Positions 20,701 to 57,733 of a DNA stretch of 64,000 nucleotides are shown here, piece by piece. The notes below the pieces were generated by a model. That model had not been told where the DNA came from. It ran no database searches and saw only the letters and a list, made by a program, of their open reading frames with translations. Within the stretch, counting starts at the first letter, position 1, and every line of letters begins with the position of its first letter. Origin of the DNA: Euglena gracilis (Eukaryota); NCBI GenBank assembly GCA_039621445.1, contig CP154954.1, positions 7,938,634 through 8,002,633 on the forward strand, given 5' to 3'. A program made the translations under genes and the position numbers.

Positions 20701-21268
20701 GCAGAGGCCGGGACGATATTATGGATGGATGAGGGCGTGCCCGCTGGGGGGCAGGGGCCGGGATGATATGATGGATGGATGAGGGCGTGCCCGCTGGGGG
20801 GCAGGTGACGGGATGATATGATGGATGGATGAGGGCGTGCCCGCTGGGGGGCAGGGGCCGGGATGATATGATGGATGGATGAGGGCGTGCCCGCTGGGGG
20901 GCAGGGGCCGGGATGATATGATGGATGGATGAGGGCGTGCCCGCTGGGGGGCAGGGGCCGGGATGATATGATGGATGGATGAGAGCGTGCCCGCTGGGGG
21001 GCAGGAGCCGGGATGATATGATGGATGGATGAGGGCGTGCCCGCTGGGGGGGCAGGGGCCGGGATGATATGATGGATGGATGAGGGCGTGCCCGCTGGGG
21101 GGCAGGGGCCGGGATGATATGATGGATGGATGAGGGCGTGCCCGCTGGGGGGCAGGGGCCGGGATGATATGATGGATGGATGAGGGCGCCCCTCCCCCCC
21201 GGGGGGGGGCCCTCAGGGGGGTGGGTGGGTGGGGGGGGACCGCCCCCCCGGTCTTAAAAAAACCCCTG
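11712..21268. mobile_element. Non-autonomous TIR element (hAT-like) expanded to 9.56 kb by an internal satellite
   Basis: TIRs CAGGGATTTTTTTAAG / CTTAAAAAAACCCCTG (15/16); perfect 8-bp TSD ATAGCAGC at 11704-11711 and 21269-21276. Confidence 0.88.
12055..21188. repeat. 50-bp G-rich tandem satellite, about 180 copies
   Basis: Monomer GATGGATGGATGAGGGCGTGCCCGCTGGGGGGCAGGGGCCGGGATGATAT. Confidence 0.97.
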
Positions 21269-24814: not shown

Positions 24815-24937
24815 GGCGGCGCCGGGCGGGTGATGGTCATCGGCAGCTGCCACATGTTCGAGGACGCGTGGCTGGACAAGGAGGAGAACGCCAAGCTGCA
24901 GGAGGTGCTCTTCGACTGGCTGATGCGCTCCCCAAAG
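24815..24937 (+). CDS. IFT52: IFT52 internal exon A (GGAGRVMVIGSCHMFEDAWLDKEENAKLQEVLFDWLMRSPK)
   Basis: Matches the IFT52 GIFT-domain motif GRxxVxGSxxMFxDxWLDKEEN; CAG acceptor ends 24814, GTGTGT donor starts 24938; 123 nt, phase 0/0. No upstream exon recognised in the window. Confidence 0.93.
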
Positions 24938-26964
24938 GTGTGTGCAGGGTGGACCCCCAGGGCAGGGCAGAACGGGAATCGGCCGAACCGCCAGGGTGGT
25001 GGGTGGGGGGGGGGTCGACCCCCCCCACCTCTTCCCGTATTTCCGGGAGAACCAATTTTTGGACCCGAAAAAATTTTTCGCCTTCGGCGCCGGGTGTTTT
25101 TTTGACCCATTTTGGGACCCATACCGCCCACCCCTCCCCCGCAAAACCACCCAAAACCCCATTTTTTCACACCTTTCAAAAATTCGACATTTTCACAAAA
25201 TGTTGATTTTGAGAGGTTTTTGAAGCAAAAAAAATGCCATTGAAAGTCCAAAAAAGTTCAACAAGAAAAAATGTCAGTAAAATTTGATTTGATTGTGCCA
25301 AAATGTTGTCCACTTTTTTTGAGCTTCGATTTTTTCACCCCCCCTCCTGAAAAGTACCAGTTTTCAGGACGGAAAATTTTGAGATTTTTTGTGACAAGCC
25401 AATTGTGAGGGACAAAAATTTTATGCGCGGTGTTTGCCCTGGGCCTGAAATCGGTCACCCGCACTGGCCATTGTTCCCGGGGCCCGACCCCACCTGATTT
25501 TATATTGAACCCTGATCCCCCCCAGGTCTCTCCAAACAGCCGTGCCCACACATCGATTCCGACCGCCTGCAATTTTTTCCGTGTTGGGGGGGGGAAGGTC
25601 AACAGTTGGTTATGTAATGCTCAAATGCTAAGAGATGCACAAGTTTTTGTAAATTGCTGATTGTTAGACTTTTTTCACTGCCTGGATACTTCTGGGTACG
25701 GTTCTCTCCCCAACTCTGGCATGGCCTCAGCTGGCGAGGAGGAGGGTACCATGAGGACAATATGGGGGGGGGTCGACCAGCATCTTTTTCCCAGCTAGCC
25801 AAGTCTTCCAGCCGGAATCCTTGGGGAAGCCAATAAGCAACTCTGTGGTGCAGAACGGTTGAATTGCCAAAGGAGCCGAAATGTTCACATCCCTTTTCAA
25901 GAGTTTCATCGGATCATGGAGGTTTTTTTTGATGTTGAAATCATGGCCAAACTCTCAGTCTGGGCATTTCGCCAAGGCACTCCACTCCGGCGCCGAAAAA
26001 TGCCCAGAAGAGGCCTTCTTTGGGCCTGTTTCGGGCCTGTTTCGGGCACGCCAGGCCCAGGGTTCGATATAAGGAGGGCGTGCGTGGTTTAGGTGGGGGG
26101 GTGTCCCCCCCCCCCCCCCCCCACCCCCCCACCTCCTGGCCCGCACGGGGGGGTCCGAACCGACCCCGGGGGGGGGGGGGATACCCGGGACCCCCCCCCA
26201 AAAGGTCAATTTTTTCGTCCGGCGCTCTGCGGCGGAGTTTTTTGTATTTTTTGTTGCAACAGCCAAATGTTTTCTTTCGGCTCCCTGCACTGCTAGTTTA
26301 TTTGCTTGTTCTTTTGCAGCTGATGTCTCGCCAGCTTCCTTTGTTTATGTGCTGCTTGCGCTTTGATTTCGCTGGATGTCAAACTTTTGGCCCGGCGCTT
26401 TGTGCCGGGCCCAAAATCGTTCACCCGGACCGCGCCACTGTTTAGGTGGGGGGGGGGCCCAGGGATCGATGTTCGGAAGGTGTGCTGGGAAGAGGAGGGA
26501 GGTGTCCCCCATCCCTCCTGGACGGGGGGGGCAGACCACCCCCATGGCCAAGTGGGGTCCAAACCGTTTCCTGGGGGTACCCGGGACCCCCAGGTAATAG
26601 GTAATAATTTTCTTTCAGGTGCTTCACTTTGCACCAATTTTTTTAAAAAAAAATAACAAATTTTGCCCAAAAAGTGCTTTTTCGGTCGATTTTTGGCCTT
26701 GCGCTTTGCGCTGTGACGAAAATTGGTCACCTGGACCGGGCTCCTGTTTAGAGTTTAGGGGGCATCCCGGAAAAGGTCATTTTCAATGAAAATTTTCTGA
26801 GTACCCCCGGACTCCACCGGGGGGTGTGCCTGCTAGGGACAGGCACCCTATAGCGGTTCCCGGATCTGGCCTGGGGGGGGGTAGTGGGCCTACCCTGGGC
26901 TTGGCCAAATACGACCCTAGGGTCGCTAAGGTCGCCCCCCCCCTTTCTGGACAGGAGGAGGGAT

Positions 26965-27318
26965 CAGACAATTGCTTAAGCACTGACCAACCCCCCCCCC
27001 CCCCCCGGGGGGGGTGGGTGACTGGTTTTTTCAAAGTGACTGACTGGTTTTTGGCCCGGACCCCTCCCCCCCCCCGGGGGGGGGTCGGCCAGGAGTGGGC
27101 AAAAGTGGCTTGAGTGACCCCGGCGCCGAAGGCGCCGGAAAAATTTTTTGGGCCTAAAATGGCCTCAAGTGACTGGAAAGTGGCCGTTTTTCTGAGTGGC
27201 CGACCCCCCCGGGGGGGGGTAGTGACTGGCTGGTTTTTTGAAAATGAGTGACTGACTGGTTTTTAAAAAAGTGGAGAACCCCCCCTCCCCCCCCCGGGGG
27301 TCGGTAAGCAATTGTATA
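26965..27318. mobile_element. CAGAC-TIR MITE
   Basis: CAGACAATTGCTTA / TAAGCAATTGTATA (12/14); perfect 8-bp TSD GGAGGGAT. Confidence 0.85.
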
Positions 27319-27428
27319 GGAGGGATCTGACCCCCCACCAGCCTTTATGTCGAATCCTGGCTGGCCCTCTGAGACCCCTCCCCTCTGGGGTCGGTCAAGG
27401 TTCAGCCTGGTCGGGCGTGCTCTCGCAG

Positions 27429-27629
27429 GTCAAGCTGAACCAGATCGACGCGGAGGACCCCGAGATCAACGACTACCACTACCTCCCCGACACCCACGCG
27501 CTGGCGGAGCGGCTGCGGGTCTGCGTGGAGGAGCGGGAGGAGCTGCCCCGCGACTTCACCGCGATGTTCGACCTGACGATGTTCAAGTTCGACACCAACC
27601 TCATCCCGGAGGCGGTGGAGCTGTACAAG
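27429..27629 (+). CDS. IFT52: IFT52 exon B (VKLNQIDAEDPEINDYHYLPDT...FKFDTNLIPEAVELYK)
   Basis: IFT52 LNQIDAEDPEI motif; CGCAG acceptor, GTGTGG donor at 27630; 201 nt, in frame with exon A. Confidence 0.95.
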
Positions 27630-28076
27630 GTGTGGCTGGAGGGGGTCTGGCTTATTGTCAATGTCTCAAAAACCTCTTTTTTGGGATGCTTTTCTTTGTC
27701 CAGCACATCCTCAAAAAACGCGACCCCAAAAAACCACAAAAAACCCGCATGTTGCATATACATTCCCCCTGACCTGCAACCCCCTGACCCGGACTGGGGG
27801 GTCGTTGTTTAGGGGTGGTCGGTTGGCAAAGGGTAGGAAAGCTTTTAGCTCCTCCAGGAAAATTTTCCATTTTGCAAAAATGAGCATATTGTTGACCAAA
27901 AAAAAGTGCAAAAACGACAAAAAAGATTGACAAAATTTTAGGTCTCAGGGAAAATTAGGACCAAAACGAGGAATTTCAAAAGGAGGAGTCAAAAAAAATC
28001 TCCCAGCAAAAAAAAATCCAAAAATCGCCAAGGAAAAAATGCAAAAAAAATAAAAGAACATAAAAACACAAATTCT

Positions 28077-28775
28077 GCCGCGATCCTTTCCCTAATTGTT
28101 GCGAAGGGCGGCAGGCGGACAGGCGCAACTTTGCCCGCGGCGGGCGTGCGTAAAGCGCAGAATTTTCCGCCCGGGAGGCGCAAAATAGCACGTAAGTAAC
28201 GAACGCCCGAAATAACGCCATTTTTCGGTCATTTTCGGCCAAAATCGGCTGCGGCGGCCCTCCAAAAACGAGCGGTCTGCCCCGGCTAGAGGTCGGCGAT
28301 CCTTTCCCTAATTGTTGCGAAGGGCGGCGGGCGGATCGGCGCAATTTTGCCCGCGGTGGGCGTGCGTAAAGCGCAGCAGTTATCGCCCGGGAGGCACAAA
28401 ATAGCACGTAAGTAACGGACGCGCCAAATAACGTCAGTTTTTCGGTCATTTTCGGCCAAAATCGGCTGCGGCGGCCCTCCAAAAACGAGCGGTCTGCCCC
28501 GGCTAGAGGTCGGCGATCCTTTCCCTGCTTGTTTCGAACGGCGGTGGGCGGATAGTCGCAATTCTGCCCGCGGCGGGCGTGCGTAAAGCGCAGCAGTTAC
28601 CGCCCGGGAGGCGCAAAATAGCACGTAATATATTGCTGCGTTTTACGAACACCCGCCACGGGCAAAATTGCGCCTGCCCGCCCGCCGCCCTTCGCAACAG
28701 TTAGGTAAAGGATCGCCCACCTCTACCCGGGGGGGAGCGCTCGTTTTTAGAGCGCCGCCAAAATCGAAAAACGGT
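28077..28775. repeat. Three ~216-bp tandem units ending in an inverted copy (foldback structure)
   Basis: GATCCTTTCCCT...GGCGG at 28082, 28298, 28515; reverse-complement copy at ~28660-28770. Confidence 0.8.
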
Positions 28776-31700
28776 TAAACACAATTTTTTTTTGTGTTTT
28801 ATCCCCCCTGCTTTAACCCCCCCCAAAAGGGTTGTTCCTTTGTGCAAATGCACCAAAGAGCACCAAAAAAACTTAAATGCGAGACTGCTGCCTAAATCCA
28901 TATGAGTTCCTTGTCCCTATTTTACCAAGTTTTTGATCCAAGCTGTGCTCTTTGTTGAGGAAAACTTTTGGTCATTGCCAATTGCCAACATTCAAATACA
29001 TATCAAGAATAGCCTGGGGGAAAAACAGCGGCGGACTTGCAAAAAAAACAACAAATTTTGGCAAGATTGAGAAACTGTGAAAAAATGCTTGGAAAAAAGT
29101 GCAAAAGTGAAAAAAAATGGAAAGGTGGTTTGGGCATTGGGGGGGGGGTTGTCATATGCTCATTCTTTTTCAAAACTGTGATTTGCAGGTCATTTTTTAG
29201 GCAATTGTCCGATTTCGCCCCCCCCCCCCCCGAGGGAAGGTGGGCTAGCCAGTCCAAATTTCTAGCCCTAGCCCAGCAACCATCCGGGTCTTTACAGAGG
29301 TGCATGGATCCAACCATTTCATTTTGCAAGTTTACAGCACATTTTCCTTTGGCGTTGCATTTTGGGTCAGGCGAATTTTTTATGTCCTCTCCAGCAGCCA
29401 GGGAGCTCCTAAAGGAACTAACTTACTTGCATTTTTTGCATTGCGTATTTTGAGGAGCCTTGTTGCATATTCAGGGGGGTGGGGATGCGGATTACATCAT
29501 CCCGCATGATCCCACATAATTTGCTTTTTTGGGGGAAAATTTGAAAAACGAAAGGCCCAGAAAAGCATTCAAAACAAATGCCTTCTGTTTCAGAGATCCT
29601 TCAGTACTTTCTACAGTAAATGTTCTTTTTTCCTCTCGCAATTGCATCCATTTTGTGATTTATGTAATGTTCCTGTTGAATTATCCTCTTAGTTTGTTTG
29701 GCTCATTGAAGTGCAGAGGAGGGGGTTGTTGTTTGGCAGTCAAAGTTGGTCCTGAGAGCGGGAGGTCACCCTACCTTTTCACCTCAAAAATTAGGCTGAA
29801 AAATCGAACCCAGCTGGATTTGGGCTTTTTGCCTTTTGGGGGGGGGAGTGCCGGACCCACCCCTCCGGATCCCCATCTCCATGGGGAGGGGGGATCCAGA
29901 TATCAGCTTTTTTCAGCCTGGAACCCTCCCTCCCCTCTGGTACTTCAGAAATTCCCTGATCGGAAGCCCTTCCTTTTGAGGTACGTGAATACCAACACAA
30001 ATACCATTTTCTGGGAAAAAAAACATCATCTTTGTGGAAAAAAAATACCCATGTGCACACCATCTATTTCCCAGTTTCTCCATGTGGTTGGTGCGCGCAT
30101 TTGCGCGGACAAACAAGTTTCATTTGTGGGCGCATTTGCGCGCAAGGACATGTCATTTTAATTTCGACATTTTGCGTTGTGCGTGCCGACAAACAAAATT
30201 TGTTTGTGCGCGCAAATGCGCGCACAAACACAGGTCAGTTGCGCGTGTTTGGCTGGGGAACACATGTAGTATGTTATGTAATATCCTTTCGTTCCTAACG
30301 GGCGGCTGCACCCTGGCCAGTTTGAGGCACCACGTCAGCATCAGTGCCAATTGTCGTCACAGTGGGTGTGTGTTTCCCTCCTGTTTGACATCCGAGAGCA
30401 CCAATCTCATCCTCGGCCCCCTCGCGTCACTCGGTGAGAAACATGTGTACCAAACCACCTGGCATTACAGCCCAGTTACAGTTGCAGCCCTCCAATACCG
30501 GGTTGCAGCAGTTCATAAATTGTTTTATTTGTGTCAGGGTGTTTCATAAAAATGGTGAATTTGCACAAATGTGCTTATTTTAAAGAAAAAAACCTTTAAG
30601 TGCGAATCCGGCCGTGTAGGATTTTTTTATTTTGGGGACCTCGTTCAGAAACCACCCCACTTTCGTTGAGGTTCTGTGACAGCCACACGATACAAAAAAC
30701 AATGTTTGTTTTTTGCGGAAATGTGCAGAGGGAGTATGTTTTGTTGTTTTGCGCATTTGCGCAAAGGAACGCTTTCAAAACCAACCAGCAGTCTCTTATG
30801 CCAGTCTGTTTGGCCTGAAAATAGACATTGTGAAATTGTGGTGCTCCCCCCTCCTGTATCTTTGTCTTGTCGGAGCCCCTTCCCACGAACATTGCTGAAT
30901 TCACCGAATGGTGCAAGGTTTTTTTTTTGAGGATTTGAAAGTGGAGATTTCTGAGACGAAAGGAGATCTGGAAGGAGTGGAATCTCGAGAGAGCCGTCCA
31001 CAAAGGTGAGGTGTTTGTACAGCATGTCTGAGCTGGTCAAAGAAAGCATGTACGTTGCCCCATATGACCCCTGAACGCGGAGGTTTCTAGTCAGCAAGCA
31101 TATCAATGATGAACGCAATGAACTTCGCCTCAATTTTTTGACAAAAAGGTCATCGTTGAACCGGCGTCATCTTTGAACGCATTTTTTTCAAGAATGAAAC
31201 CGTGTTTTGCCAGTTATTTTGATGTTGCAGGGGCCATGAAATGATTTGTCACAAGGGTCAAGTGCCAAAATGTCCGAATTCGGTCGCTCAAGGTGTCTTA
31301 ACCTGCTTTTTAATTACAGCAATTTCCCGTGTTATTTGCAGCACAAATGCAGCAAATCCCGTGCCTGCAATGACCATTTCCGCAATTGCTCACATGTTCC
31401 GTTGTGCAATTGCGCAAAGGAACATTTCTTGTTGCGCATTTTCAAAGAGGAACCATTTCCAGGATTGTGGGAACAGTCCGGTTTGAGCAGTTGTGCAAAT
31501 GGAACGTTCCCGCAGTTGCACCAGCAGTCTCTATGTGCAGTTGTGCACTGGTTCCTTGGTGCGATTGCGCAAAGGAACCCCCAATTTTCTAAAGTCAAAG
31601 TGCCATTGTGCTGGGTTCGGTGTCATCTGCCCTGTTTTTTTCCCCCCAACAACATCCCCAGTTGATGAGGCATCTTTTGAAAGGTTCCCAAAGACACGTG

Positions 31701-32465
31701 GTAGGCGCACACTGACGTGCTCCAGGGTACCCTAATTTTCTAATTCCTCATATTTCCCCCTTGCGGTCACCAGACCACATCCCAACCACATTTTATGGGT
31801 CGCGTTCCCAGTATTAGGGATTTCAGGAACAAGGCACCTTTGCGCAAAGGCACAAAGGAACAAACCAATGTGTCAAGTGTGAGTGCCGCCGCCTAACTTG
31901 GTCCTGTTGAGTATTTTTAAAAGGGGGGATTAGTTGGTGGGCAGAGAAAATGTTGCTCAAAAAACCGACCTCAAAATTGCCCGCCGCAAATTATGGCAAA
32001 TGACATTTTCCGTGACCCTCGGGCAGGAACCACAATCTTGTAGTTGGTCAAAGACAGTTTGGCGGACCAAGCAAACCATGTGCATCCTGGGTGGCAGTTG
32101 GGAAGCGGTCGCCGTCCAACAGAAGGAGGGTGTCTGGGGTTTACAGTGTCAACAAAAATCATGGGAGACAAAAAATACGGAGGGAAAAAACAGGTGGAAA
32201 TTTATTGGAAAATTTTCAAATATGAAAAAAAATTGAAAAATGGTATTTTTAATAATGGGAAAGTTTTAGCTTTTTGAAACCAATGAGGGGACATTTTTGG
32301 GCTCTTTTTGCAAACTATTTTTCGAAATGGATTGGACGGAAGTACCTCGTGCAGTTTGGAAGACGTCGCTTTTTTTTTAACCATACTCATTTAGACCATG
32401 CCACAGTGTCCATACAGGGGGGATCGGCTGTGAAAAAAGCTTTCTATCACTCCTCTGCTCTACAG

Positions 32466-32510
32466 AAGCTTGGAGTGAAGCACGAGGCTCTGTCGCTCAT
32501 CCACCCTCAG
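32466..32510 (+). CDS. IFT52: IFT52 exon C (KLGVKHEALSLIHPQ)
   Basis: TACAG acceptor, GTGTGA donor; 45 nt; matches IFT52 LxVKHEPLxLIxPQ. Confidence 0.9.
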
Positions 32511-34136
32511 GTGTGATCTGACCCTCTATGAAATAACTGGCTCGAAGGAACGTCGATGGCAACAGTTGACAGCACCTGCTTGGTCCACCTTTGCGCAATC
32601 TCATTGTAAGTGGAAATTCACCTGTTTGGAACTCTCTTGTCCAATGAACATCCCCGGTTGGCATTTCCCATAACTTGTTTTTCGGTGGCCGGCCAGGATT
32701 GAAAGTGATGGGTGTCACTGCAGGGTTTGGGGTTCGAAAAAGGAGTGTGCGGGGGTGGGGGGCGCCTCCCCCCTCCACAAGAGGTGGGCCCAGACCACAA
32801 CCTGCCAAGGTGGTCCGGACCGCCCCGGGGGAGGTTCGGACCCCCTGCCCCCAAAAAGGGTAAAATTTCCCTCTGGCACTTTGTGCCAAAAATTTTGGGC
32901 ATGCTTGACAAATTTCGCCCAAGAAAGTCCCCAAAAAGAAAGGGCATTTTTGGCCGAGTGTGAGGGCAAAACTTCGGTCCAGCGCTTCGTGCGGACCAAA
33001 AATCGGTCACCTAGACCGTGCCACTGTTCAGGTGGCGTTTCCCCCCCCCCCCCCACGACTGGACTGGGGGGCATCCAACCCCCCCCCCCGCCCTTATGCA
33101 GGGCCTGAGAAGGTCGGAAAACTCATTTTTTGAGGTTTTGCTTGTCCTACCGGGGGGGGGGGAATTGGATGCCAAAAAAATTGATTGGGAAAAAATTGGC
33201 GTACAGAAATCCTGCCAAATTTTTCCGGGCCTTTTTTGAAAATCCTGCCTCAAAATTTGAAAATCACCCTTTTTCCAGTCATCTTGCACACAAAACCTGC
33301 CAATTTTTTCCGGGCCGTTTTCAGGTTTGGCACCAATTTTTTCGGCTTCCAATTTTGTGGGGTCTAATTTTATCTAGCTTCAATTCCCCCCCCCCCCCCA
33401 GTAGGATGCCGGAAACCATTCCCCCCCCCTGATATCAGCCTCTTTTTTTTGCCAAAATATGGCCATTTTTTGGCAGTTTTCTTGTGAGATTTTCATTGAA
33501 TGTGCTGGACCAGGGGTCCAGCCAGCAGCTCCAAGCCAGGCTGGGGGGGGGTCCATTGAAATAAAGTTTGGGCCAGCGCAGCCACACTGAGCAGAAAAGA
33601 CATTGACACAAAGAACCGGAAAAAGATTTACAAAAAAAAATGGTGTCAAAATGGCTGAAAAATGGTGTTCTTGAAGGTTTTCTGGGTTTGAAGGTTTTCA
33701 AATCCTCAAAGTTTCAGCTGAGAATTTCAGTTCCAGCCCAGCTGGATTTGATTTCCTGCCACAATTTGGGTGCAGTCGGGTCCAGCCTGGCAGCCAATTT
33801 GACCTCTCCCAATTTGGAACCCCCACCCCCTGGGGGGGGGGGATCCAGCCAGTATTTTTTTCCCTTTCCAGTCAGCACATTTTTTTCCAGCCAGCATGTT
33901 CGCCCCCCCCCCAAGAAAACCCCTGGCTGACATTTATTTTATATATGCTCAAGGACCCCCCTGCCTTTATGTTGGGGGGGAAAAAACCTGGCCCACCCAA
34001 GTTTGCTGTTTCTTTTTGTATTTCTAACCGGCTCAGCACCACAAGTGACTTCGAGGAGGGGGGTGTAAAACAACACGTTTTACATTTAAGGCGGTGGTTT
34101 GTTGGTTGCAGGTCCTCTTGTCTCCCTCTCCGTCAG

Positions 34137-34188
34137 TTTGAAACCCCATTGCCGCCATTGTACCCTTCGGTGTTTCTGCCCACACACC
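34137..34188 (+). CDS. IFT52: IFT52 exon D (FETPLPPLYPSVFLPTH + first base of Arg)
   Basis: Pyrimidine tract and CAG acceptor; matches FETPLPPLQPAVFPP. The 3' boundary has no GT and is placed by the nonconventional intron consensus (uncertain by 1-2 nt). Confidence 0.85.
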
Positions 34189-41950: not shown

Positions 41951-43287
41951 TTACTGCGCCTTTGTTGCCGGAGTTGGCGATGATGAGGCCTCCTCCGACA
42001 TCTTGGCGAAGCTGAAACGCCGTGGCCCCGCCCCCCCCCTCTCCCATGGTCGCTTGGTGGGGGCCCCCCCCCCTGATGGGGATGGTGGTCTCTTTCTGTG
42101 TTTCTGGGTGGGTGGTTGGGGCTGCTTGGTTGGGGGTCCCTTTTCTGGTTGGGATGTTTTTCTGCTGATTTTTTGGGTGGGAGGGTTGGGCTCACCATCT
42201 TCTTGTGCTTCGCCCTCTTGGTCCCTTCCTCCCCCTTCCTGTGTCGTGGGAGTCCGAGACCATTCGGGCTCCGCACTGCGAGATGGTGAGGTACTGTGCA
42301 CCCCCCTTTGGGCCATAATATTTTGAATTTTTGACACGACTCCCAGCCTCAAATAATGGGCTTGGAAGGCACCAAAATTTTTCCACTGACCCAGCTGCTG
42401 GACTTCTTCCACTTGCAAACCAGCATTTTTCCACCATAAGACCCCAGCCCCTCTGGTGCTGTGGGGTTTCCAGTGGGTGGTGTCCACCCCCCCCCCTCCT
42501 GCAGAATTTCTTTGGTTAGGGAGTTCACCCTTTCTGATGTCAAAGGTCTTTTACCATCCAAAGACCACAACAAATTATTTTTGTGCCCAACCATGTGGGC
42601 TGTCCTTTCCACATACTCTTTCAATAAATGCCATGGGCTTATGAGGGGGGTGTGTGGCAAATTCAAAATCTCTTCCCATTTTGGGAATTGCCACCCTTTC
42701 CTTTGCAATAAAATGAAAATTTTTTCTCCCACGAAACTGATTTTTCGCTGTGTCCTGGCTAAATCAACCCCCCTGTGGAGGGCCAAAAGCCTCCAACAGA
42801 TGATGAGTCTGTTTCTGAGCTCTTTCACAGATAGGTCTGAGAGGGGTGTGGAATTCCTCATGATGTTTTCTAGGAAATCAGTGGGGTCCCAAAAGTGGGC
42901 ATACTTGCAGACATTGGCATTCCACTTCCTTTTCAATGGAGCCAGAAGGGGTGAAAATCTCAAAGACCCAAACCCTGGGAGTAGTAAGGCTGCTGCATAT
43001 GCATTTCGTGCAGTATTGATGCTATGAACAGCAAGATCAAGGATGGCTTCAGCCATCTTGGGGACTGTGCACTGCTGCAGAGGCACCCCTTTGTGCAATA
43101 ATTGACCCACCAATGCCCTGAAGGCTGAGTCATATCTTTTGACATTTCCCAGATTTTTTATGTAAGTGTCGATACTGGACATCGAAACTTCCTGGGATTG
43201 TAATATTTGCCTGACACAATCAAGCAGGCCAAATTCCACCTTGGGGGGGGCATCTCCTCCCCCCAGCAGTTGGTGAACAGACCCCAC
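41951..43287 (-). CDS. DIRS tyrosine recombinase (frameshift at the homopolymer near 42490)
   Basis: Catalytic-type motifs LHRGVDL, HSTRGAG, LGQW, AHY split across ORFs 42349-43287 and 41951-42487. Confidence 0.88.
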
Positions 43288-46066
43288 TGGGGGGTACTAG
43301 CAAAACCTTGCTGCCTGGCTGCCTGATTGACATTAATTGGCGCCACCATGATGTCGAAGCCCAGTGGGGTACAATCAACAGACAAATTAGGTCTGGGTTT
43401 AACATTAATCTCTGAATCCATTGGGGAATGATGCTCCAGGGAGGGTTGGCATAAACTGGGGGGAGACCCCTTAAATCTGCCTTCAGAGCATCCACCAACA
43501 AAGCCCCTTGGTGGGGGTATCGACAAATGAACTTGGGGAATTTTTTGTTGCTGGGTGTGCAAAACATGTCCACCTCTGGGGTGATGTGGTTTTTGAAAAA
43601 CTTCAGAATCTGGTGAAAAATGGTCAGATTCAGGGTATAATCCCCTGGATCTTTTTGCTCCCTGGTCAGGGAGTCTGCCAATTGTTCTTTTGTGGGAACC
43701 CAAACCACCTGCAAGTTGATTTGCCTTTCTTGGCAATGGTACAGAAGGGGTTTTAGGATGGAATTTAAATATGGCTTTTTGCCTCCCCATTTTGTCAAAT
43801 AACTGACTGCCACCTGGCTGTCCACATGAAGAACAATGGTTTGTTTTGGTTTTGCCAAAGCCTTTACAGTTTCCACCGCAGACATCAATTCTTTTTGATT
43901 GATGTGAAGGACATGCAGGTCCCTCCAGAAATCCTGGACCTTTTGACCAGACTTTTTGTCCAGCCCCCCCCATTGCCAGGTGCTGCTGTCTGAGAACAGT
44001 TCCTGAGAGGCCTGGGATTGAAAGGCTCTGCCCACACCTGGCTGCAAAAACGTTTTTAACTCCACAATTTGATCTTTGACCCCCTGGGGAATGGTCAGGG
44101 TGTGGTCCCAACCCCACTTTGTGTGCAAATCCACCATTTTGCAAAGTTGATCTGTCAGAATTCTGAGAAAAGGCATTGAAACTAAATAGCTTCTGACTTG
44201 CCCTACAATAGAGCTGAGTTTTCTGCAGCTCATCTTTTGTGCTGTCAGCACCTTTCCTAATTCCTTTCTTAGGGATTTTAATTTTTCCTGTGGAATTTCC
44301 AGCTGGCCTTTTTTCAAATTGATCCACTGGCCCAAATGCTTTATTTCTTGTGTTGGTTCCAGACATGATTTGGGGAGGTTTATTCTGAAACCTGCCAGTA
44401 AAAGATCTTTTTTCATTTCTGCCAAATGCTGGGCTGCTGTCTTTTTGCTGGGGGCTAACAGCAAAATGCCGTCTAGGTAGATGAAAACTACCTTTCCTTC
44501 CTTCCTCCATTTCCTTTCCCAGACTCTCATGAGAGTCATAAACTTTTGTGGCAGGCTGCTTAACCCAAAGCATGCAGCTTGAAATTGCCACGTTTCCCCC
44601 CCCACTTGCATGCAGACATGCTTTTCCAGGCTGCTGTGCAGCTTTAAATGGAAATAAGCATCTTTCAGATCTATTTTTCCACAGAACCAACCCTTTCTGA
44701 GATATGGGAAAATGTTTCCCATGTGTTCCAGTCTGAACTTCTGGGGGGTGAAATAGTGATTTAACTGTCGACAATCTGAAATTAGTCTTTCCTTGGTCTT
44801 TTCCCCTTCTTTTTTGGAAATTATGAAGTAAGGGACAAAATGTTTTGCCTCCTCTGGGGGGATTTGCCTGGTTGCCCCTGCACATTCGTATTCTCTCAGA
44901 ATTTTTTGGGCAGTCATTACTTCCTTGGGGGCTTTGAAGGGAACTTTTAAGGACATTAGAGGGGGGAGGGGAAGATCTGCCATGACCCCTTCCCTTATCA
45001 GGTTTAATACCTCTCTGCTGGCACCTGCCTTTTCCCAATGGGGGATACTGGCCTGCAGGGCTTTGTAAGGGGGCACCCCTGGATGTAATGTGTCTGGGGA
45101 TTCCACAGGCCCCATCACTGGGGTCCTTCCCCCTGGCTGCCCCATCACTGGGGTCCTCTCTGGCTGCCCCATCACTGGGGTCACCTCTGGCCCTGCCATA
45201 GGGCTGCTCAAAGACAGGCTTTCCCCCTGTTTTTGAAAGATGGGGGAAGGTCTGTTTCTGCAGTGGGGAGGTACATATACAGCTGGGGGGTGTGGGCTGA
45301 TTATCTTCTGGGGGGGCCCTGGTGTAGCCAATCTTGGGCCTCCCCCCCAAGGGCTGTGGTCTTGAATGCATTGGCCTCCCATGGCCACCTGATTTTGATT
45401 GAAATGGCCTCCATTGGCCTTGATATTTTTCCTCTGGCCTCCATTGGCCTCTTGGATATAATGGCCTCCATTGGCCTGCCCCTGAAGGGGGGGCTGCTTG
45501 CTTGGATGGGCAGCTCCTGAGGGGTTTTTGATTGAGGGAGCTGTGGGGTAAGTTGGACATACCTTCCCCCAGTGGGATCTTCCCAGGTTGGGATACAGGC
45601 TGCCATAGCCTTGCAACTGGGCCCACTGCCCTCTTGAATGCTGGCTGCCATAGCCTTGATTCTGGGCCCCAGGCCCTGTTAAATGATGGCTGCCATAGCC
45701 TTGAGTTTGATTTGAATCCTTTCGATTTCTGATATCTCCAGAGAGGCTGCCATAGCCTTTGCTTTTTCCCCTGGAAGGGGAGGAATTGGGAAAAAGGGGT
45801 GGAGTCTGTTGGACCTGTGATGGTAGTCCCCCTCTGTCTTCTCTTCCTGACCACTGCTGTCCATGGTCCATGGCCATCATTTTGAGTGGGGGATCCTGAA
45901 AACTTTGAATTGCTGGGGGGTGGGGGGGTTGCGATGGCCACGGACTGACGTGCTGCTGCCGCCTCATCACCTTCTGCAGCTGCTGCTGTGTGTCCACCTT
46001 CCCCAGCTGTTTTCTTGGAAGTTCGTTGGAGTTCTTCTTGGCAGTTTGAATTTCTTTGCAGATCAT
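43158..46066 (-). CDS. DIRS pol: reverse transcriptase, RNase H, phage-type adenine methyltransferase-like domain
   Basis: KIDLKDAYFH, CFGLSSLP, IYLDGILL (YLDD expected), FSDSS/HINQKEL/VDS/ADSLTR (RNase H), VDMFC...YANPPW...VPHW...WW (MT); apparent 1-nt indel in the G run near 43290. Confidence 0.9.
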
Positions 46067-49000
46067 TCTTCATGGAAGTCCAGTGTGATGCTGTCTTCTT
46101 AATTGAAATATTTCTGGGATAATTCCAGTTGAACTCGAAGAGTTGAATTCTTCCTCCTGGAAGTCGAAGGTCAGCAAAAACTTTTGATCCACCAGTTGAT
46201 AATTCGCCGTTCTTCGGTGAATGTAATGCTCCTTGTAAATATTTTCCAAGTGAACTCGTAGCAGTAAAATTCTTTCTCCTTGAGGTCGAAGGGCAGAATT
46301 AGGAATCAGCCAACTCCGGCAACAAAAAGCAGTAAGAAGCACCCCCCGCGCACGCACAAACACACCAGAACAGAACAGCCGGCAAGGAAAGCAGGACCTC
46401 ACCATCTCGCAGTGCGGAGCCCGAATGGTCTCGACCAACCTGTTCCAGTAAACTTCAACCCAGCGTGCAAGATGGCGATGACGACATTCTTCTCCAGGTC
46501 GTGTAGTTGGTCCTTAGTTGGTCCTTAGTTGCACCAAGTTGAAAATGAACTCGGTCCACGATTGTTCGAGGAGCGGTCCTTCCTCGGTGAGCTGGGCAAC
46601 GAGATTATTCTCCACGTCCATCTTGTATTGGATTGATTGCAATCTTCACCAATTATGGATCTTGTTGGTACTTGTTGATCTTGCTTGCTTTGCTGTGCGA
46701 TAGCTTGTGATAGCTTCCCTTTGTAGCAGGGCTACGTCAGCCAACTGCCGGCGCGAAGAGCAGTAAGGAGAAGACGCAAGGCAAGAAAAACAAAGAACAA
46801 TAGCCGGCGAGGGAAAGACAGGTCCCATCGAGCCAAAGTGTGGAGCAAGGGTGGTCCGCCTACCCTTGTCACGGAAAGCCTGAGGGCCCTTTTTTATTTT
46901 AAAAAACCACCGGCCTTCTTGGGCTTTTCCGGCTGGCCTCCGTCCTCTTTTGGGCGCCATCGCGTCCGTCCAGGGTGGGCTCCCCGCCAAAGGAAATTCA
47001 AGGTCAGCCCCGAAAAGCCCAGCTTTGTCGAAGATTTTTCCGTGCGAACGCAGTCGCAGGTACTCTTTTTTCGGGAAAGCGAGGGGTAGCGCCGAAAGCC
47101 ACCTCGGGCCACCTCGGGCTCCGCACTTTGCCCTTGTGAGGCCATGCCTTGTTCGCCGGCGGTGTTGTTTGGATCGTTCGTTGTGCGTTGGGTTAGGAGT
47201 CCCCGCTTAGTGTCTTTTTTCGTCGGAGCTCGCTGATTCTTAATTTCCCCTTCGACCCAGAAGAAAGGATCTTCAATACAAGAACCCTGACAATTGGATA
47301 TCAAAGGATAGGTCAACTAAATTTTACGGAAAGCGACCCTCGTGCAGAAGATAAAATCAAATTTTGTCGACAAATTAAAGATTTCAATGACAAAGGCCCC
47401 CGGAATTTCAAAGACAAAGAAGAGCATCGCTGGTCAACAAGAACTGGCTGCCGCTGCAGCTGGACGACCTGACAGTGTGGTGCAATCGTGGCGAATCGTG
47501 GCTGTCCCTCCCCTCCCAGAAAAAATTTCTGATCACCCACCCAGCGACAGCCACGGACTGTGGCAGACAGTGGTCAGAAAAACCTGAAGGACACAAAAAG
47601 AAAGACAACTGTCAGGCCACTACAGCCAAGGCCATGGAGGCCTATATCCCAGTCACACAAATACATCGTTCAAGCTGGGCCACGGAGGTCACAAAAGCAA
47701 TGACCACATGGAACAAAGGCCAGGGTGGCCAACAATATCAAACCCACGGAGGCCGACTCCACAAGCAGATGCCCAGTGGCAGGGGCAGGACAGGTCCGGA
47801 ACACCCCCCAACCATTTCTTCATCACAACCCCTTTCAGGGGCAAAGGAGTGGCCCCCAGAGGCCCCACAAGATTTTCAATGGGCATGGCGTCACAGAACA
47901 AAGAAAAGTCAATGGTGACTTTCAAAGTTTCAAGAGAATTATTCTCATCAAGGCCCCCGGACCCCTCATCACGCTCAAGTCCAACAGTTTCCTCAAACCC
48001 CTTCAGGGGTAAAGGACTGGCCCCCAGAGGCCCCCCAAGATCTTCATTGGGCATGGCGTCCCAGAACAAAGACAAGTCCATGGGGTTTGTCAAAATTTCA
48101 AAAGGCGGGTGGACTCAACATCAAGAGTGCCAGTGGGGCCAGGATTTTTGTCAAGGCCACTGGGGCTAGCATTATTCTCATCAACCTGGTCAAGACCAAC
48201 AATTTCAAGGCCATTGGGGCCATCAATTATCAAAAGGGGGAAAACCCCAGAAGTTAAAAGGCTGTTCCCGCAAAATGGGAATTCAATATACTGTGGCAGG
48301 CCTGGGAGGAAGCCCCAAGAGGGGCAGTGGATGACAAGTTCTTCAATGCCCATGGCAGGGGCAAACCAAAGCAAGGGGGAAGGGGCCACTACGGAATGTC
48401 AATTGACAACACCAACGACAAAGTGGAGGATGCACAAACAATTGATTTTTTTTGTAGTTTTGTACCAGTGCATGGTGTGGGCAAAAAACCCTGTGTGTGA
48501 GATTGTGTTTGAAATTGGTGGGTTCGAGTGGGGACTTTCTTAGGTTAATTAGGGAAAATGGAAAAAACCTAATGTGAAAAATTGGTCGGCCGGTCTTGAA
48601 AACTTCCAAGAATCGGCCTTGCTTGGGTGACTTTAGGTGGGTAGGCTCCACCCCGCTGCCGTGAGGTGTCCGGGACTGTGCAGCCCTGGCCAGGGGTCGG
48701 TGGTCTCTGCAGGGCACTGGGGGCTCGCTGGGGCCTGGTTGTTCGTGGCCGCCTGGGCACCCGGGCAACCGAGGGGGGCGCGGCATGGCCCCTTGGGCAC
48801 CCCTCCTCGGCTGCAGCTCCCTGTCAGCGGCCCCCAGCGCCCCTCGAGACCCCGGTCCTCCGGCCGGAGCTGACCAGCTGCAGGCACCCTCCGGGCTGTA
48901 TGGGCTTCACCTGCCTGACCGGCCGCCCCTCCAGGCCCCCCCTGGGGTTGCCCGGACGGTACTGAAGCCGCTTAGGATCCCTTCGGGGCGGTCGGCCCAC

Positions 49001-49994: not shown

Positions 49995-50416
49995 GGGTAA
50001 ACGCCGCCCAAATAATATACCCCCCCGGTCTATTTTTTAGAAACCCGAATTCGGGGTCCAGGGGGGTTTATTTTTTGGGGGGGTTATTATTTGGGCAAAA
50101 AAATTGAAGGCAAAAATTGGCCCGAAAACCCCTCCAAGGCCCCAATGGTCACTTTTTTGACGTTTTTGGGCTTTTTTGAAAATTGTGTGGTTTTTGGCAC
50201 ATTTTATGCACCAATTTTTCCTATTTTTGTGATTTTCGGCAACATTTCTGTTAATTTTTGACTCTGTTTTTCTTTGGATTCACACCTGCCGGAGGGGGGG
50301 TTTATTATTTGGGCGGCCGAAGTCGGTCCTCAGGGGAGGGGTTATTATTTGAGGGGTTTATTATTTGGGGGGGTTATTATTTGGGGAGGTTTTATTATTT
50401 GGGGGGGGGTTTACCG
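49995..50416. mobile_element. MITE with GGTAAAC...AAATAAT TIRs and GGGGTTATTATTT subterminal repeats
   Basis: GGTAAACGCCGCCCAAATAAT / ATTATTTGGGGGGGGGTTTACC; sits between the gag and protease remnants. Confidence 0.7.
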
Positions 50417-54338: not shown

Positions 54339-55311
54339 AGTGTACGTCCAACCTTTCCTTGTTTTAGCCCTTGGGTGCACAAAAAGGTAAAAGTTGGAGT
54401 AACGGAGAAAAAATTATAAAAAATTGAAGAGCCCTTTTCCCCAATAAAGAGGCAGAGCACAAAGCAGGCGAAGGATCCCTATGGGCTGCAACAAAGAATG
54501 CCAAGTGACTTGGCTGTACTTTCCGGATTTTTGAAAACAAATAAAACTTGAAATCAAGTGAAGTCAAGAATAAAAAAAATAGAATATAATACCACCTGTG
54601 GAGAGGAGAACCAGAACAAGTTTTTGCTCTATGGAGCTAGGTATTCCTAATCCAGGCCGTTGGCCATCTTTAGGAATAAGACCTAGCATAGTACTGTGTA
54701 TGGGGCTCAGAACTATATCTGACCGCAGGCTTATACCTACATACACAGTATCATGGCCTTACGGCTGCCTGGTACACAACAAGCTCGTAATACATACAGC
54801 GCTATGCTTTTGATGGGTTTGGTGGGCTGAGATTCTACACGCTGTTGACCCCTTACAAGATGCTTTGGAACAAAAATCTGGAGAAGTATGGGGCATTTTG
54901 GGCTCCGCTCCCAATCCTCCTGGGGCTGGTAAAGGCGCCTATGCCCAATGATATTTGTACATTGCGAACACAACTTATTTTTTGCTCACAAATACTCTGT
55001 TTCTACAGATCTTCATACCTGGCACAGGTCAAACGAACCACAAGCGTGTTGAGTAGGGCACCGTTCATCAAAATTAAGCACAAAGGCCAAAAAATCCACA
55101 AGGTTGTGTCCATACCCAGTGCCCACAAATAAGCCCCTTTCATTTTAATGATGTGTTATGTGGTGGCCACACGTTTATTCGTGAGATCTGGGGGCCCCTC
55201 CTGATTTCATTGAAACCCTCCTCCAGAGCCAAAAGTGCAGACACCATTGCTTCTATCACAAAATAATTTTTGTCCAAACATGGGGTAACCCCCCAGGTGT
55301 GGGGGGCCCAC

Positions 55312-56331
55312 TGTATGTAGGTTTAGCAAACCGCTGTTGGACGGCCACGGGGCAGCTCATACTACTTGCCGTGGCTCGTCCGCTAGCGAGGGGTCACGCC
55401 CGTGGTAATCCTACCGATCAACGTTCGTCCACGTGCCCAGCCTCACGCGCCGATCGATCCCCGCGGTATGCCCTCTGCTCGTACGGGACGGATCAGGACT
55501 CACACGGCGGGACCTGGATCTTGAACCCACGACCTCCCGCGTCTGATCCCAGTGCCCTTACCGAATAAGCAACTCGAGCGATACTCGGCTTGGTACTACG
55601 CGCCGGCGACCTACCCCCGTAGGATCTTCCGTCTGCCGCACACTCCCCTCCCAAGAGCCTTACTACACTAGCTCACTGCGTCACTATGGCCGTGGCCCCT
55701 GCATCTCGGGTTATGCCTCACACGGCCCTAGTCGGCTGAGTGCCTCTCACGAGGACTGCGTCACCAGGCTGCCGACCGCTGCAGCTCGGGTTTACTGTTG
55801 CCGGAAGTTTACGTGTTGTCGACTTCCACGGGCTCTGCCGCCTTGGAGCGTCCTCCTTAGCATCGGCTTGAGGCTTTGGAACGGTGTAGGAGTTTCAGTC
55901 GCCCTAGACTCGGCGCGTCCGCCTCCGCCTTCCAGGCGCCGTGGGGTCAGGCTCTGATGTCCCGGTTCGTGTTGCATTAGACGGGTTCCCCTGCTACCAT
56001 GTATGTAGGTTTAGCCACCCGCTGTTGGACGGCCACGGGGCAGCTCATACTACTTGCAGTGGCTCGTCCGCTAGCGAGGTGCCACGCCAGTGGTAATCCG
56101 ACCGATCAACATTCGTCCACGTGCGCAGCCTCACGCGCCGATCGATCCCCGCGGTATGCCCTCTGCCCGTACGGGATCGATCAGGACTCACACGGCGGGA
56201 CCTGGGTCTCGAACCCACGACCTCCCGCGTGTGAGCCCAGTGCCTTACCGAATAAGCTACTCGAGCGATACTCGGCTTGGTACTACGCGCCGGCGACCTA
56301 CCCCCGTAGGATCTCCCGTCTGCCGCACACA
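55312..56331 (-). mobile_element. TRIM (non-autonomous LTR element, 1020 bp) with tRNA-derived LTRs
   Basis: Direct repeats 55312-55642 and 56000-56331 (TGT...ACA); PBS TGGTAGCAG adjoining 56000; PPT GGGAGGGGAG at 55643-55652; 5-bp TSD CCCAC / CTCAC; non-coding interior. Confidence 0.9.
56194..56266 (-). promoter_or_regulatory. tRNA-derived segment with Pol III A and B boxes inside the TRIM LTR (second copy 55506-55579)
   Basis: GCTCGAG TA GCTT ATTCGGTA AGGC A CTGGG CTCACAC GCGGG AGGTC GTGGG TTCGAGA CCCAG: tRNA spacing, D and T arms pair, CAC at the anticodon position; acceptor and anticodon stems broken. Confidence 0.75.
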
Positions 56332-57342
56332 CTCACTCCACCAGAGCGGCAGGAGTTGGTTTACTCAAAAAATTGGGGATTTCTGCCCAAGAGGTTTGTG
56401 AAATTGGCCAGTGGTGGGGGGTGGATGCTTTTACAGGCCATTATCAACGACTTGGGGCCCAGGGTGCTCTTGGAAATGCCCTGTTCCCCCAGTGAACAAT
56501 CCGGCCTCACTAGAGCAAAGTGAGGACCCCGGGGTGTCTCGTACTCTCTCAAGGCAAACCGTTCATCACTGTACATTGTCATTGATGACATCTTTGAAAT
56601 TGTAATTACAGGTCCTGGTGCTGAGCCGTGAGGCACGGCCTTCGAGAACTTCCAGGTGGAGCATCGAGATGAGCCTTGAGGCACGTAATGGAGAACCAGA
56701 TGGTGGTTATTTGTGGTTTTGGTGGTCATTTGCTGTTGTTGACATTACAGTAGGTTTGCATAATCGCTGGGTTGTGAGTTCACCTACCGTTTACGAAAAA
56801 ACTCTCGCCGTTTCGTTTGGCAATTGGTGCTGCCATGTGCTGGCGTTCTGCGGCAGAAGGTGGTTACTTTCATCCGTTTTACTTCGTCTTCAACTTCTTC
56901 TTGTCGTGTTCCAAGTGGCTCATCAAGATGTTCAACGTGGGATAAAGGTCTGTCCTATGTCGCTCCGAATGCTGGGTAAATTGTGGACAATTTTTCTGAG
57001 AAGGAGGGTGAGAGCAGACATCAAAGTATTCCAGAATCTGTGATTGCAATCTGAAATTAGGCATGGCTAGAAAAGATATTTCGCCCATTGAAAATTCTAC
57101 TTGGCTTTTTCACATTGGTACGGCAAACAGTGCATCACTTTGTAGTAGTTGTATCTGGCAAGGTCTTGGATTGCATGTGTTGGGAAGTGTGGAAGGGATT
57201 TGGAGAATTGAAGTTCAAGGTTCTACTCTGGCAGATTGCCATGGGAGGTTGATGGGAAAGGCTTTTCTAGGTTGCTTGCCCTGGGGGCCTCGCCCACGTG
57301 GTGGGGAAAGTTGAGTTGTGTTTGATGTACTCACCCATGTAG

Positions 57343-57733
57343 CCTAAACCCAAAAAATAAACTCCCCCGGTTTATTATTTGGACACCCGAAGTCGGGGTC
57401 CAGGAGGAGGTTTATTATTTGGGGGGGGGGTTTATTATTTAAGCAAAAATTTCGAAGTCATAAATCAACCCAAAAAACCCTCAACGGGCTCCAATGCTCA
57501 CTTTTTTGGCAATTTTGGGCTTTTTTGAAAATTGGGTTTTTTTTTGGCGTATTCTGTGCACCAATTTGATCAATTTTTGTGATTTTTGTGCCGCTTTCTT
57601 GCAAATTTTGACTCTTTTTTCTTTGCCATCACACCTAACACAGGGGGGGGGGGTTATTTTTTGGGCCGCCGAAGTCGGTCCTCGGGGGGGGGGGTTATTT
57701 TTTGGGGGGTTTATTATTTGGGGGAGGGGTTTT
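57343..57733. mobile_element. Second, diverged copy of the 49995-50416 MITE
   Basis: Colinear similarity (CCCGAAGTCGGGGTCCAGG, GGCCGAAGTCGGTCCTC, TTATTATTTGGGG). Confidence 0.7.

Follow-up and report, generated by a model that had tools for sequence, protein, structure and literature searches.

A 64-kb window of the Euglena gracilis genome (the whole stretch of 64,000 nucleotides analysed here) carries on its minus strand a gene-less mini LTR retrotransposon of 1,020 nt, located at 55312-56331 and found by BLAST as a sole copy within the window. We consider it likely that this is an aged TRIM of the Helenus type, that the tRNA-derived A and B boxes of its LTRs form an internal Pol III promoter, and that the element was copied by the proteins of a full-size LTR retrotransposon. 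Its LTRs, primer site and purine tract, its 5-bp target-site duplication (TSD) and its non-coding, multi-copy nature are all features of a TRIM; its length lies slightly above the nominal 1,000-nt TRIM limit. The parts of the element are listed in Table 1.

Table 1. Positions of the parts of the element, predicted RNA stems included.
Feature	Positions	Strand	Remarks
5′ LTR	56000..56331	-	332 nt, TG...CA
LTR head module	56135..56331	-	~197 nt: U3-like 65 nt, tRNA-like segment, two predicted hairpins
tRNA-like segment, 5′ LTR	56194..56266	-	73 nt, sense orientation; LTR positions 66-138
A box TAGCTTATTCGG	56248..56259	-	from the sequence and pattern test
B box GGTTCGAGACC	56205..56215	-	from the sequence and pattern test
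Predicted stem 1	56184..56238	-	56238-56223 with 56200-56184, 16 pairs, z -4.36
Predicted stem 2	56139..56183	-	56183-56173 with 56149-56139, z -2.48
Primer-binding site TGGTAGCAGGGG	55988..55999	-	12 nt, immediately 3′ of the 5′ LTR
Internal region	55643..55999	-	357 nt; ORF list: no coding frame recognised as confined to the region
Polypurine tract GGGAGGGGAG	55643..55652	-	abuts the 3′ LTR on its 5′ side (from the sequence)
3′ LTR	55312..55642	-	331 nt; lacks a terminal dinucleotide present in most family contigs
Decayed tRNA-like segment, 3′ LTR	55506..55579	-	A box TTGCTTATTCGG, B box GGTTCAAGATCC, one inserted base
TSD, left copy CCCAC	55307..55311	.	single copy retained in empty-site joints
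TSD, right copy CTCAC	56332..56336	.	one mismatch to the left copy

The two LTRs are direct repeats with TG...CA ends and 94.3% identity (BLAST). Their global alignment showed 21 differences, comprising 7 transitions, 11 transversions and 3 gap positions, and the K2P distance between them is 0.057. A frame at 55981-56523 that overlaps the element had no Pfam match. The internal region also holds an old duplication of 38 nt (55675-55712 and 55755-55792), the two copies of which are 74% identical and 80 nt apart.

The ends of the element were defined with contigs from four DNA runs, aligned at 82% likeness to a 1,851-nt stretch that included the flanks. In each of the runs, contigs representing the empty site (17, 14, 11 and 14 respectively) joined 55308 directly to 56334, and this joint skips 1,025 bases, i.e. 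the 1,020 bases of the element plus the 5 of the TSD. The imperfect 5-bp TSD is therefore genuine. Together with the LTRs, the primer site and the purine tract, the empty-site joints in all four runs upheld the coordinates and the complete mini LTR structure given in a preliminary description of this DNA, which was also right about the length of the TSD. An additional 'CA' was inserted behind 55638 in ~95-99% of contig depth in all four DNA runs. This extra dinucleotide and the 1,025-base skip ruled out an element end at 56329 with a TSD of only 3 bp.

The DNA contigs further showed that the element was inserted in another high-copy repeat to which both flanks belong. This flanking repeat (54900-55311 and 56332-56750) is of very high copy, with a contig depth equal to or above that of the element. 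A resemblance of the right flank to the purine-tract side (BLAST extension to 56347) had hinted at a tandem remnant, which was rejected, the letters of the right flank up to 56347 continuing the host repeat in the empty-site contigs. Likewise, a joint from 56327 to 55639 was not counted as a tandem array, since the 3′ LTRs of other copies fit the 5′ LTR better.

The primer site, described from the outset as of the Met type, was confirmed as such: TGGTAGCAGGGG is complementary over 11-12 consecutive nt to the 3′ ends of eukaryote-type initiator tRNA-Met(CAT) genes other than Euglena's own. Scanning for initiator-type tRNA ends yielded 25 loci, 19 of which ARAGORN called Met(cat); the scan pattern itself fixes 11 of the matched bases, and the result is to be read as such ends belonging to Met tRNAs. 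For the Leishmania initiator tRNA, agreement with the primer site is limited, by eye, to the last 8 nt of the tRNA, so that it is no stand-in for that of Euglena. A related tRNA-Met primer site, TGGTAGCAGAGC, appears for GalEa Copia elements in the available text of PMC5445492. Self-priming was rejected, as the LTR contains no stretch of at least 7 nt complementary to the primer site.

Each LTR was initially described as holding a 73-nt tRNA-shaped segment in the sense orientation, and this stood up to comparison with the Rfam tRNA model. Positions 56266-56194 matched RF00005 over model positions 1-71, at 18.5 bits (E 1.6), and of the stem pairs the 5′ LTR segment keeps 4/4 in the D arm, 4/5 in the T arm, 4/7 in the acceptor and 3/5 in the anticodon arm. 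The covariance-model check was hence positive as to a full-length match and negative as to its score, which lies under the 29-bit gathering score and beside four further sub-threshold Rfam matches; moreover, ARAGORN called no tRNA anywhere in the 64-kb window. Such a score and the ARAGORN result are what would be expected if the tRNA likeness were due to chance and the element an ordinary TRIM. We hold this to be very improbable. A relaxed A-box/B-box pattern, composed from a box consensus after the sequence had been seen, matched once in both strands of the window (128 kb), at this very segment, and in only 6 of 20,000 dinucleotide shuffles of the LTR. Chance would also have to account for a model match that spans the full length and includes D and T stems, and for the identities to real tRNAs, which reach 55 of 73 positions in a set selected by motifs and, by hand count, 47 of 73 for Leishmania tRNA-Lys(CUU). 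On sequence grounds, then, the segment is tRNA-derived, as judged from the full-length model match, the D and T stems, the shuffle test and the likeness to tRNAs. It is predicted to encode no functional tRNA, given the state of its acceptor (4/7) and anticodon (3/5) stems, a disfavoured cloverleaf and the negative ARAGORN result. In metagenome contigs, a pattern based on the boxes gave 0 matches.

The isotype of the ancestral tRNA was originally given as Val-CAC-like, a label that found no support. The segment shares 44-55 of 73 positions with at least 96 real tRNAs of many isotypes, the best being Asp (55), Ile (53), Val(CAC) and Met (52 each) and Lys (51), in a comparison set of viral-contig tRNAs picked by shared motifs (ARAGORN called 126 tRNAs in 164 phage/viral loci, and the comparison drew on the ones whose isotype was parsed). 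Nearly all phage BLAST matches with an annotated RNA were tRNAs, and isotype assignment via phage and viral tRNAs proved uninformative. Against the two Leishmania infantum genes found in the available part of PMC13298570, Lys(CUU) scored 47/73 and Val(CAC) 44/73 by hand count. The letters that had been read as the Val anticodon loop form one arm of predicted stem 1.

Both boxes had been thought to be kept in each LTR. This held for the 5′ LTR; in the 3′ LTR they read TTGCTTATTCGG and GGTTCAAGATCC, the segment fails the A/B pattern, and its anticodon position reads CAG. Six of the 21 LTR-LTR differences fall in the tRNA-like segment, i.e. 6 in 73 positions versus 15 in 259 elsewhere. Family contigs favour the 5′ LTR version of the segment ~30-45:1 by depth (in run X1, ~536,000 versus 11,600 for the 3′ LTR version), so that the version with intact boxes is that of the family, and the 3′ LTR has decayed. 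The copy is aged, and because of the decay of its 3′ LTR it is probably inactive.

The number of contigs matching the 1,851-nt stretch, flanks included, was 5,912, 7,178, 3,267 and 4,635 in the four DNA runs. The element belongs to a large interspersed family with many variants and with sister LTRs. These sister LTR families have in common the head module and diverge beyond 56135. Loose ends at 56132-56135 were present in 4/4 DNA runs and in 1/4 RNA runs; a joint from 56004 to 56135, seen in 3/4 DNA runs, represents a short-LTR relative with the same primer-site flank; and relative to the internal region, depth in all four runs was 2.7- to 5.3-fold for the head (56140-56325) and 1.1- to 2.6-fold for the remaining LTR, where each value sums the homologous bins of both LTRs and contig depth is no copy number. 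From the loose ends, the joint and the depth excess, it follows that several LTR types share the ~197-nt head. Loose ends at 56113 and 55375 (runs X24, X2 and X8) mark another LTR variant, which departs in the 3′ part of the LTR. With this further variant, the number of LTR types sharing the head is at least three.

The shared module reaches 65 nt upstream and ~60 nt downstream of the tRNA-like segment, an extent that does not distinguish the boxes from their neighbours in the head. Within 56194-56266, no variants were listed in the RNA reads (depth 1-8) or among 40 of the 168 DNA variant rows. The segment could in principle have been missing from most relatives, an outcome that the preliminary description had named as counting against its proposal; instead it falls where coverage of the element is highest in 4/4 DNA runs. 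The same observations bear on whether the segment might be a passenger, that is, the head of a tRNA-derived SINE inserted by accident into an otherwise ordinary TRIM LTR, where it plays no role. The share of LTR-LTR differences in the segment and the lack of an expression signal in four RNA runs (see below) would fit with this. Yet differences between the LTRs of one inserted copy are expected to be neutral, the box-bearing head is precisely the part that sister LTRs have in common while the remainder was replaced, and the sequence contains neither a separate SINE tail nor an inner TSD. We therefore regard a passenger origin as improbable, and favour a segment kept for its promoter.

We then looked for expression of the element in four RNA runs, sampled at 12.9, 12.9, 12.9 and 8.3 million records (~5-6% of each run). 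Only 13, 11, 4 and 31 reads fell on 55643-56392, on both strands, and in none of the four runs did reads on this interval share a start or an end. RNA reads covered the adjoining 60 nt of the flanking repeat to the same degree as the element, and 65-100% of them continued into unrelated sequence. The transcript start predicted near 56266 was accordingly not seen in any of these runs. The RNA signal is background; it neither supports nor refutes a discrete Pol III transcript, which library type or silencing could hide.

The presence of reads on both strands, in a euglenozoan host, also recalls the trypanosomatid snRNA genes, in which tRNA-like boxes serve as an external promoter for an oppositely oriented neighbour; the available text of PMC4950102 reports that tRNA-like boxes A and B drive the Leishmania U2 snRNA. 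By analogy, the boxes of the Euglena element would promote RNA of the other strand. We give this very little credence, since the segment is oriented like the primer site and the purine tract, as a genomic RNA requires, and RNA of the opposite strand could not be primed at TGGTAGCAGGGG. Moreover, the Leishmania tRNA-like sequence is itself reported to be transcribed (PMC4950102, available text).

On its sense strand the element has no TTTT. The sole TTT lies near the far end of the 3′ LTR, and there is none between the predicted start and the boxes of the 3′ LTR. Base shuffles were without TTTT in 64% and without TTT in 4.8% of cases; the absence of TTTT is weak evidence when taken alone, since the majority of shuffles likewise lack it. 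In this copy, the first TTTT is found 49 nt into the flank. Trypanosomatid tRNA genes terminate at runs of at least 4 T, according to the available text of PMC2695483.

Folding predictions set the head apart from the remaining element. The first 270 nt of the predicted transcript were more stable than 200/200 shuffles (z -3.08), and the signal was confined to the head, with 0/200 shuffles as stable as 56184-56266 (z -4.36). Compared with shuffles, no special folding was seen for U3, the remaining LTR, the internal region (z +1.0) or either flank; the antisense strand folded alike, as expected of any inverted repeat. Fifteen of the 16 pairs of stem 1 had probabilities of 0.96-1.0. This stem is predicted to pair the former anticodon arm with bases just past the tRNA end, placing the T arm and the B box at its tip, and with a calculated energy of -43.1 kcal/mol for the hairpin vs -6.8 kcal/mol for the cloverleaf, the head RNA is predicted to fold as a long hairpin rather than as a cloverleaf. 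A pairing of the 5′ end (56247-56262) with the U3 end of the 3′ LTR (55576-55589) appeared in the fold of the whole RNA and would bring both RNA ends together for strand transfer; formed locally, the hairpin did not surpass shuffles in stability (z -0.65 and -0.23), and this pairing was not relied on.

The shared head module stops 4 nt past stem 2. One pair of that stem, 56181/56141, varies between A-U, G-U and G-C among RNA reads: the variant at 56181 was present in 5/5 reads of X21 and 7/9 of X24, and that at 56141 in 0/6 and 7/9 respectively. The single change that was not observed would cost 4.7 kcal/mol. This putative compensating change concerns one pair and at most 9 reads per run, the two variants having been counted position by position.

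These results raise the question of whether the head was kept for its RNA structure, e.g. for packaging or strand transfer, in an RNA supplied by Pol II read-through of introns or host repeats rather than by Pol III. Such an explanation would account for a head that folds far beyond shuffles (z ~ -4.3) next to an element that does not, for a shared module ending just past stem 2, for the three states of the stem 2 pair, and for RNA reads running on into unrelated sequence as read-through would. Structure alone, however, would not preserve two boxes spaced as in a tRNA, the A box is part of neither strong stem, and the covariation amounts to a single pair with few reads. We judge this explanation unlikely, if less so than the other alternatives considered above. 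A role of the RNA structure and a role as promoter are compatible, not exclusive.

Our preferred reading, an internal Pol III promoter in the LTRs, suggests the following course of events. Transcription by Pol III would begin in the 5′ LTR, near 56266, and with no TTTT in its way would continue across the internal region and past the 3′ LTR. LTR elements generally proceed by priming, strand transfer, second-strand priming and integration, and the Euglena element would do likewise: initiator tRNA-Met would prime at TGGTAGCAGGGG, the resulting strong-stop DNA of ~270 nt would be transferred to the 3′ LTR, second-strand synthesis would begin from the purine tract GGGAGGGGAG, and insertion by a borrowed integrase would produce the 5-bp target duplication. 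The predicted hairpin in place of a cloverleaf may keep the RNA from tRNA processing, or may serve packaging. No autonomous partner was found in the window by BLAST or Pfam. More tentatively, and with less confidence than in the Helenus-type reading itself, we can imagine an independent Euglena lineage of Pol III TRIMs, in which the boxes were kept in the DNA and the RNA was rebuilt as a hairpin, the ~197-nt head became portable across families, and the flank sets the 3′ end of the RNA in a SINE-like manner.

The window itself agrees with the euglenozoan host that had been proposed. It includes an exon of IFT52 (27429-27629, plus strand, AG/GT borders), whose 67 encoded residues are all identical to EukProt EG_transcript_9433; the exon is 94% identical to the Eutreptiella gymnastica protein. 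IFT52 exons extend across 24815-34150 on the plus strand with multi-kilobase, repeat-rich introns between them, and one of the introns carries, at 28080-28628, 2.5 copies of a 217-nt tandem repeat, followed by an inverted partial copy. E. gracilis can be cultured and transformed; owing to this tractability, Pol III use by Helenus could be tested in this host.

The window has several other features. On the minus strand, a frame of 949 residues at 43220-46069 matches RVT_1 (Pfam, E 1.6e-12) and weakly a Dam methylase (E 0.0055), a layout known from DIRS-type retroelements; an overlapping frame of 1,046 residues (43158-46298) had no Pfam match. At 1290-23338, a 151-nt satellite forms several arrays; these are broken by short insertions and by 183 copies of a 50-nt G-rich unit, which form an array of 9 kb (12056-21188). 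A pair of ~370-nt repeats with GGGGTTATTATTT motifs, 80% identical to each other, flanks the region of the element (50007-50371 and 57349-57724).

How does the Euglena element compare with known Pol III-linked retroelements? With the tRNA-derived SINEs (SINE2) it shares a degenerate tRNA head with boxes A and B, small size, lack of coding capacity and high copy number, and it differs from them in its LTRs, its primer site and purine tract and the fixed length (5 bp) of its TSD; SINE2 move by target-primed reverse transcription with a LINE (PMC10886601). Cassandra resembles it in having a Pol III promoter derived from a small RNA in the LTRs of a TRIM, and is the only such TRIM with validated Pol III transcripts according to the available text on the subject (PMC10886601; bioRxiv 10.1101/2023.07.14.548913). 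As far as that text goes, Cassandra contains 5S rRNA sequence (boxes A, IE and C), occurs in land plants and terminates within its 3′ LTR, unlike the Euglena element, which has no terminator inside and in which no 5S rRNA match was obtained (Rfam, 54800-56900, up to E 10). Ajax has in common with it the TRIM layout, a segment resembling a Pol III promoter and a TSD of 5 bp; it is 5S-derived, uses a tRNA-Leu primer and is known from two nemertean genomes (PMC10886601). The preliminary description was mistaken in citing tRNA-bearing Ajax elements from oomycetes: the tRNA-bearing elements are Helenus, Ajax being 5S-derived and nemertean (PMC10886601), and a keyword search of the supplement of that paper for 'oomyc' and 'Phytophthora' gave no match.

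It is Helenus (TRIMp3; Kojima 2024) that the Euglena element resembles most: TRIMs with tRNA-derived LTR sequence from fungi, animals and Selaginella, in which the boxes are conserved and no functional tRNA is encoded, for which Pol III activity is unvalidated and multiple origins were proposed, and which are expected to be mobilised by an autonomous Copia or Gypsy element with the same primer site (PMC10886601). Both are non-coding TRIMs with two LTRs, a primer site, a purine tract and a tRNA-like LTR segment with a broken tRNA fold, and both occur as several families within one genome. At 1,020 bp the Euglena element falls inside the Helenus size range (311-1,263 bp), its LTR of 332 nt being longer than the longest reported for Helenus (323 nt). 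The Helenus boxes TRGCY...YGG and GGTTC correspond to TAGCT...CGG and GGTTC in the Euglena 5′ LTR (TTGCT in the 3′ LTR), and a TSD of 5 bp, as well as priming by the 3′ terminus of initiator tRNA-Met, is also seen in some fungal Helenus. The architecture is thus of the named kind, with the Euglena element showing every structural feature that could be tested; the assignment rests on architecture, not on sequence relatedness to Helenus families.

In rust fungi, the number of tRNA genes is overestimated on account of Helenus-type LTRs (PMC10886601). For the E. gracilis assembly, the available text of the genome paper gives 4,882 tRNAs and does not discuss TRIMs (PMC11252322); part of these tRNAs may derive from the present family. 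Our search of the openly accessible literature brought up no TRIM with tRNA sequence from any euglenozoan. Some differences from Helenus are apparent. In those fungal and bivalve consensus LTRs that could be compared by eye, the tRNA segment stands near the LTR 3′ end, often followed by a T-rich run, whereas in the Euglena element 194 nt without a T-run lie behind it. The predicted refolded hairpin and the head shared between families are seen in the Euglena element and unmentioned for Helenus (PMC10886601). Finally, Table 1 of that paper names as Helenus hosts fungi, animals and Selaginella only, and the present host is a euglenid. This adds Discoba to the fungi, animals and lycophyte in which TRIMs with a putative tRNA promoter were known, and it supports the idea that LTR parasites of diverse eukaryotes have captured Pol III promoters repeatedly.
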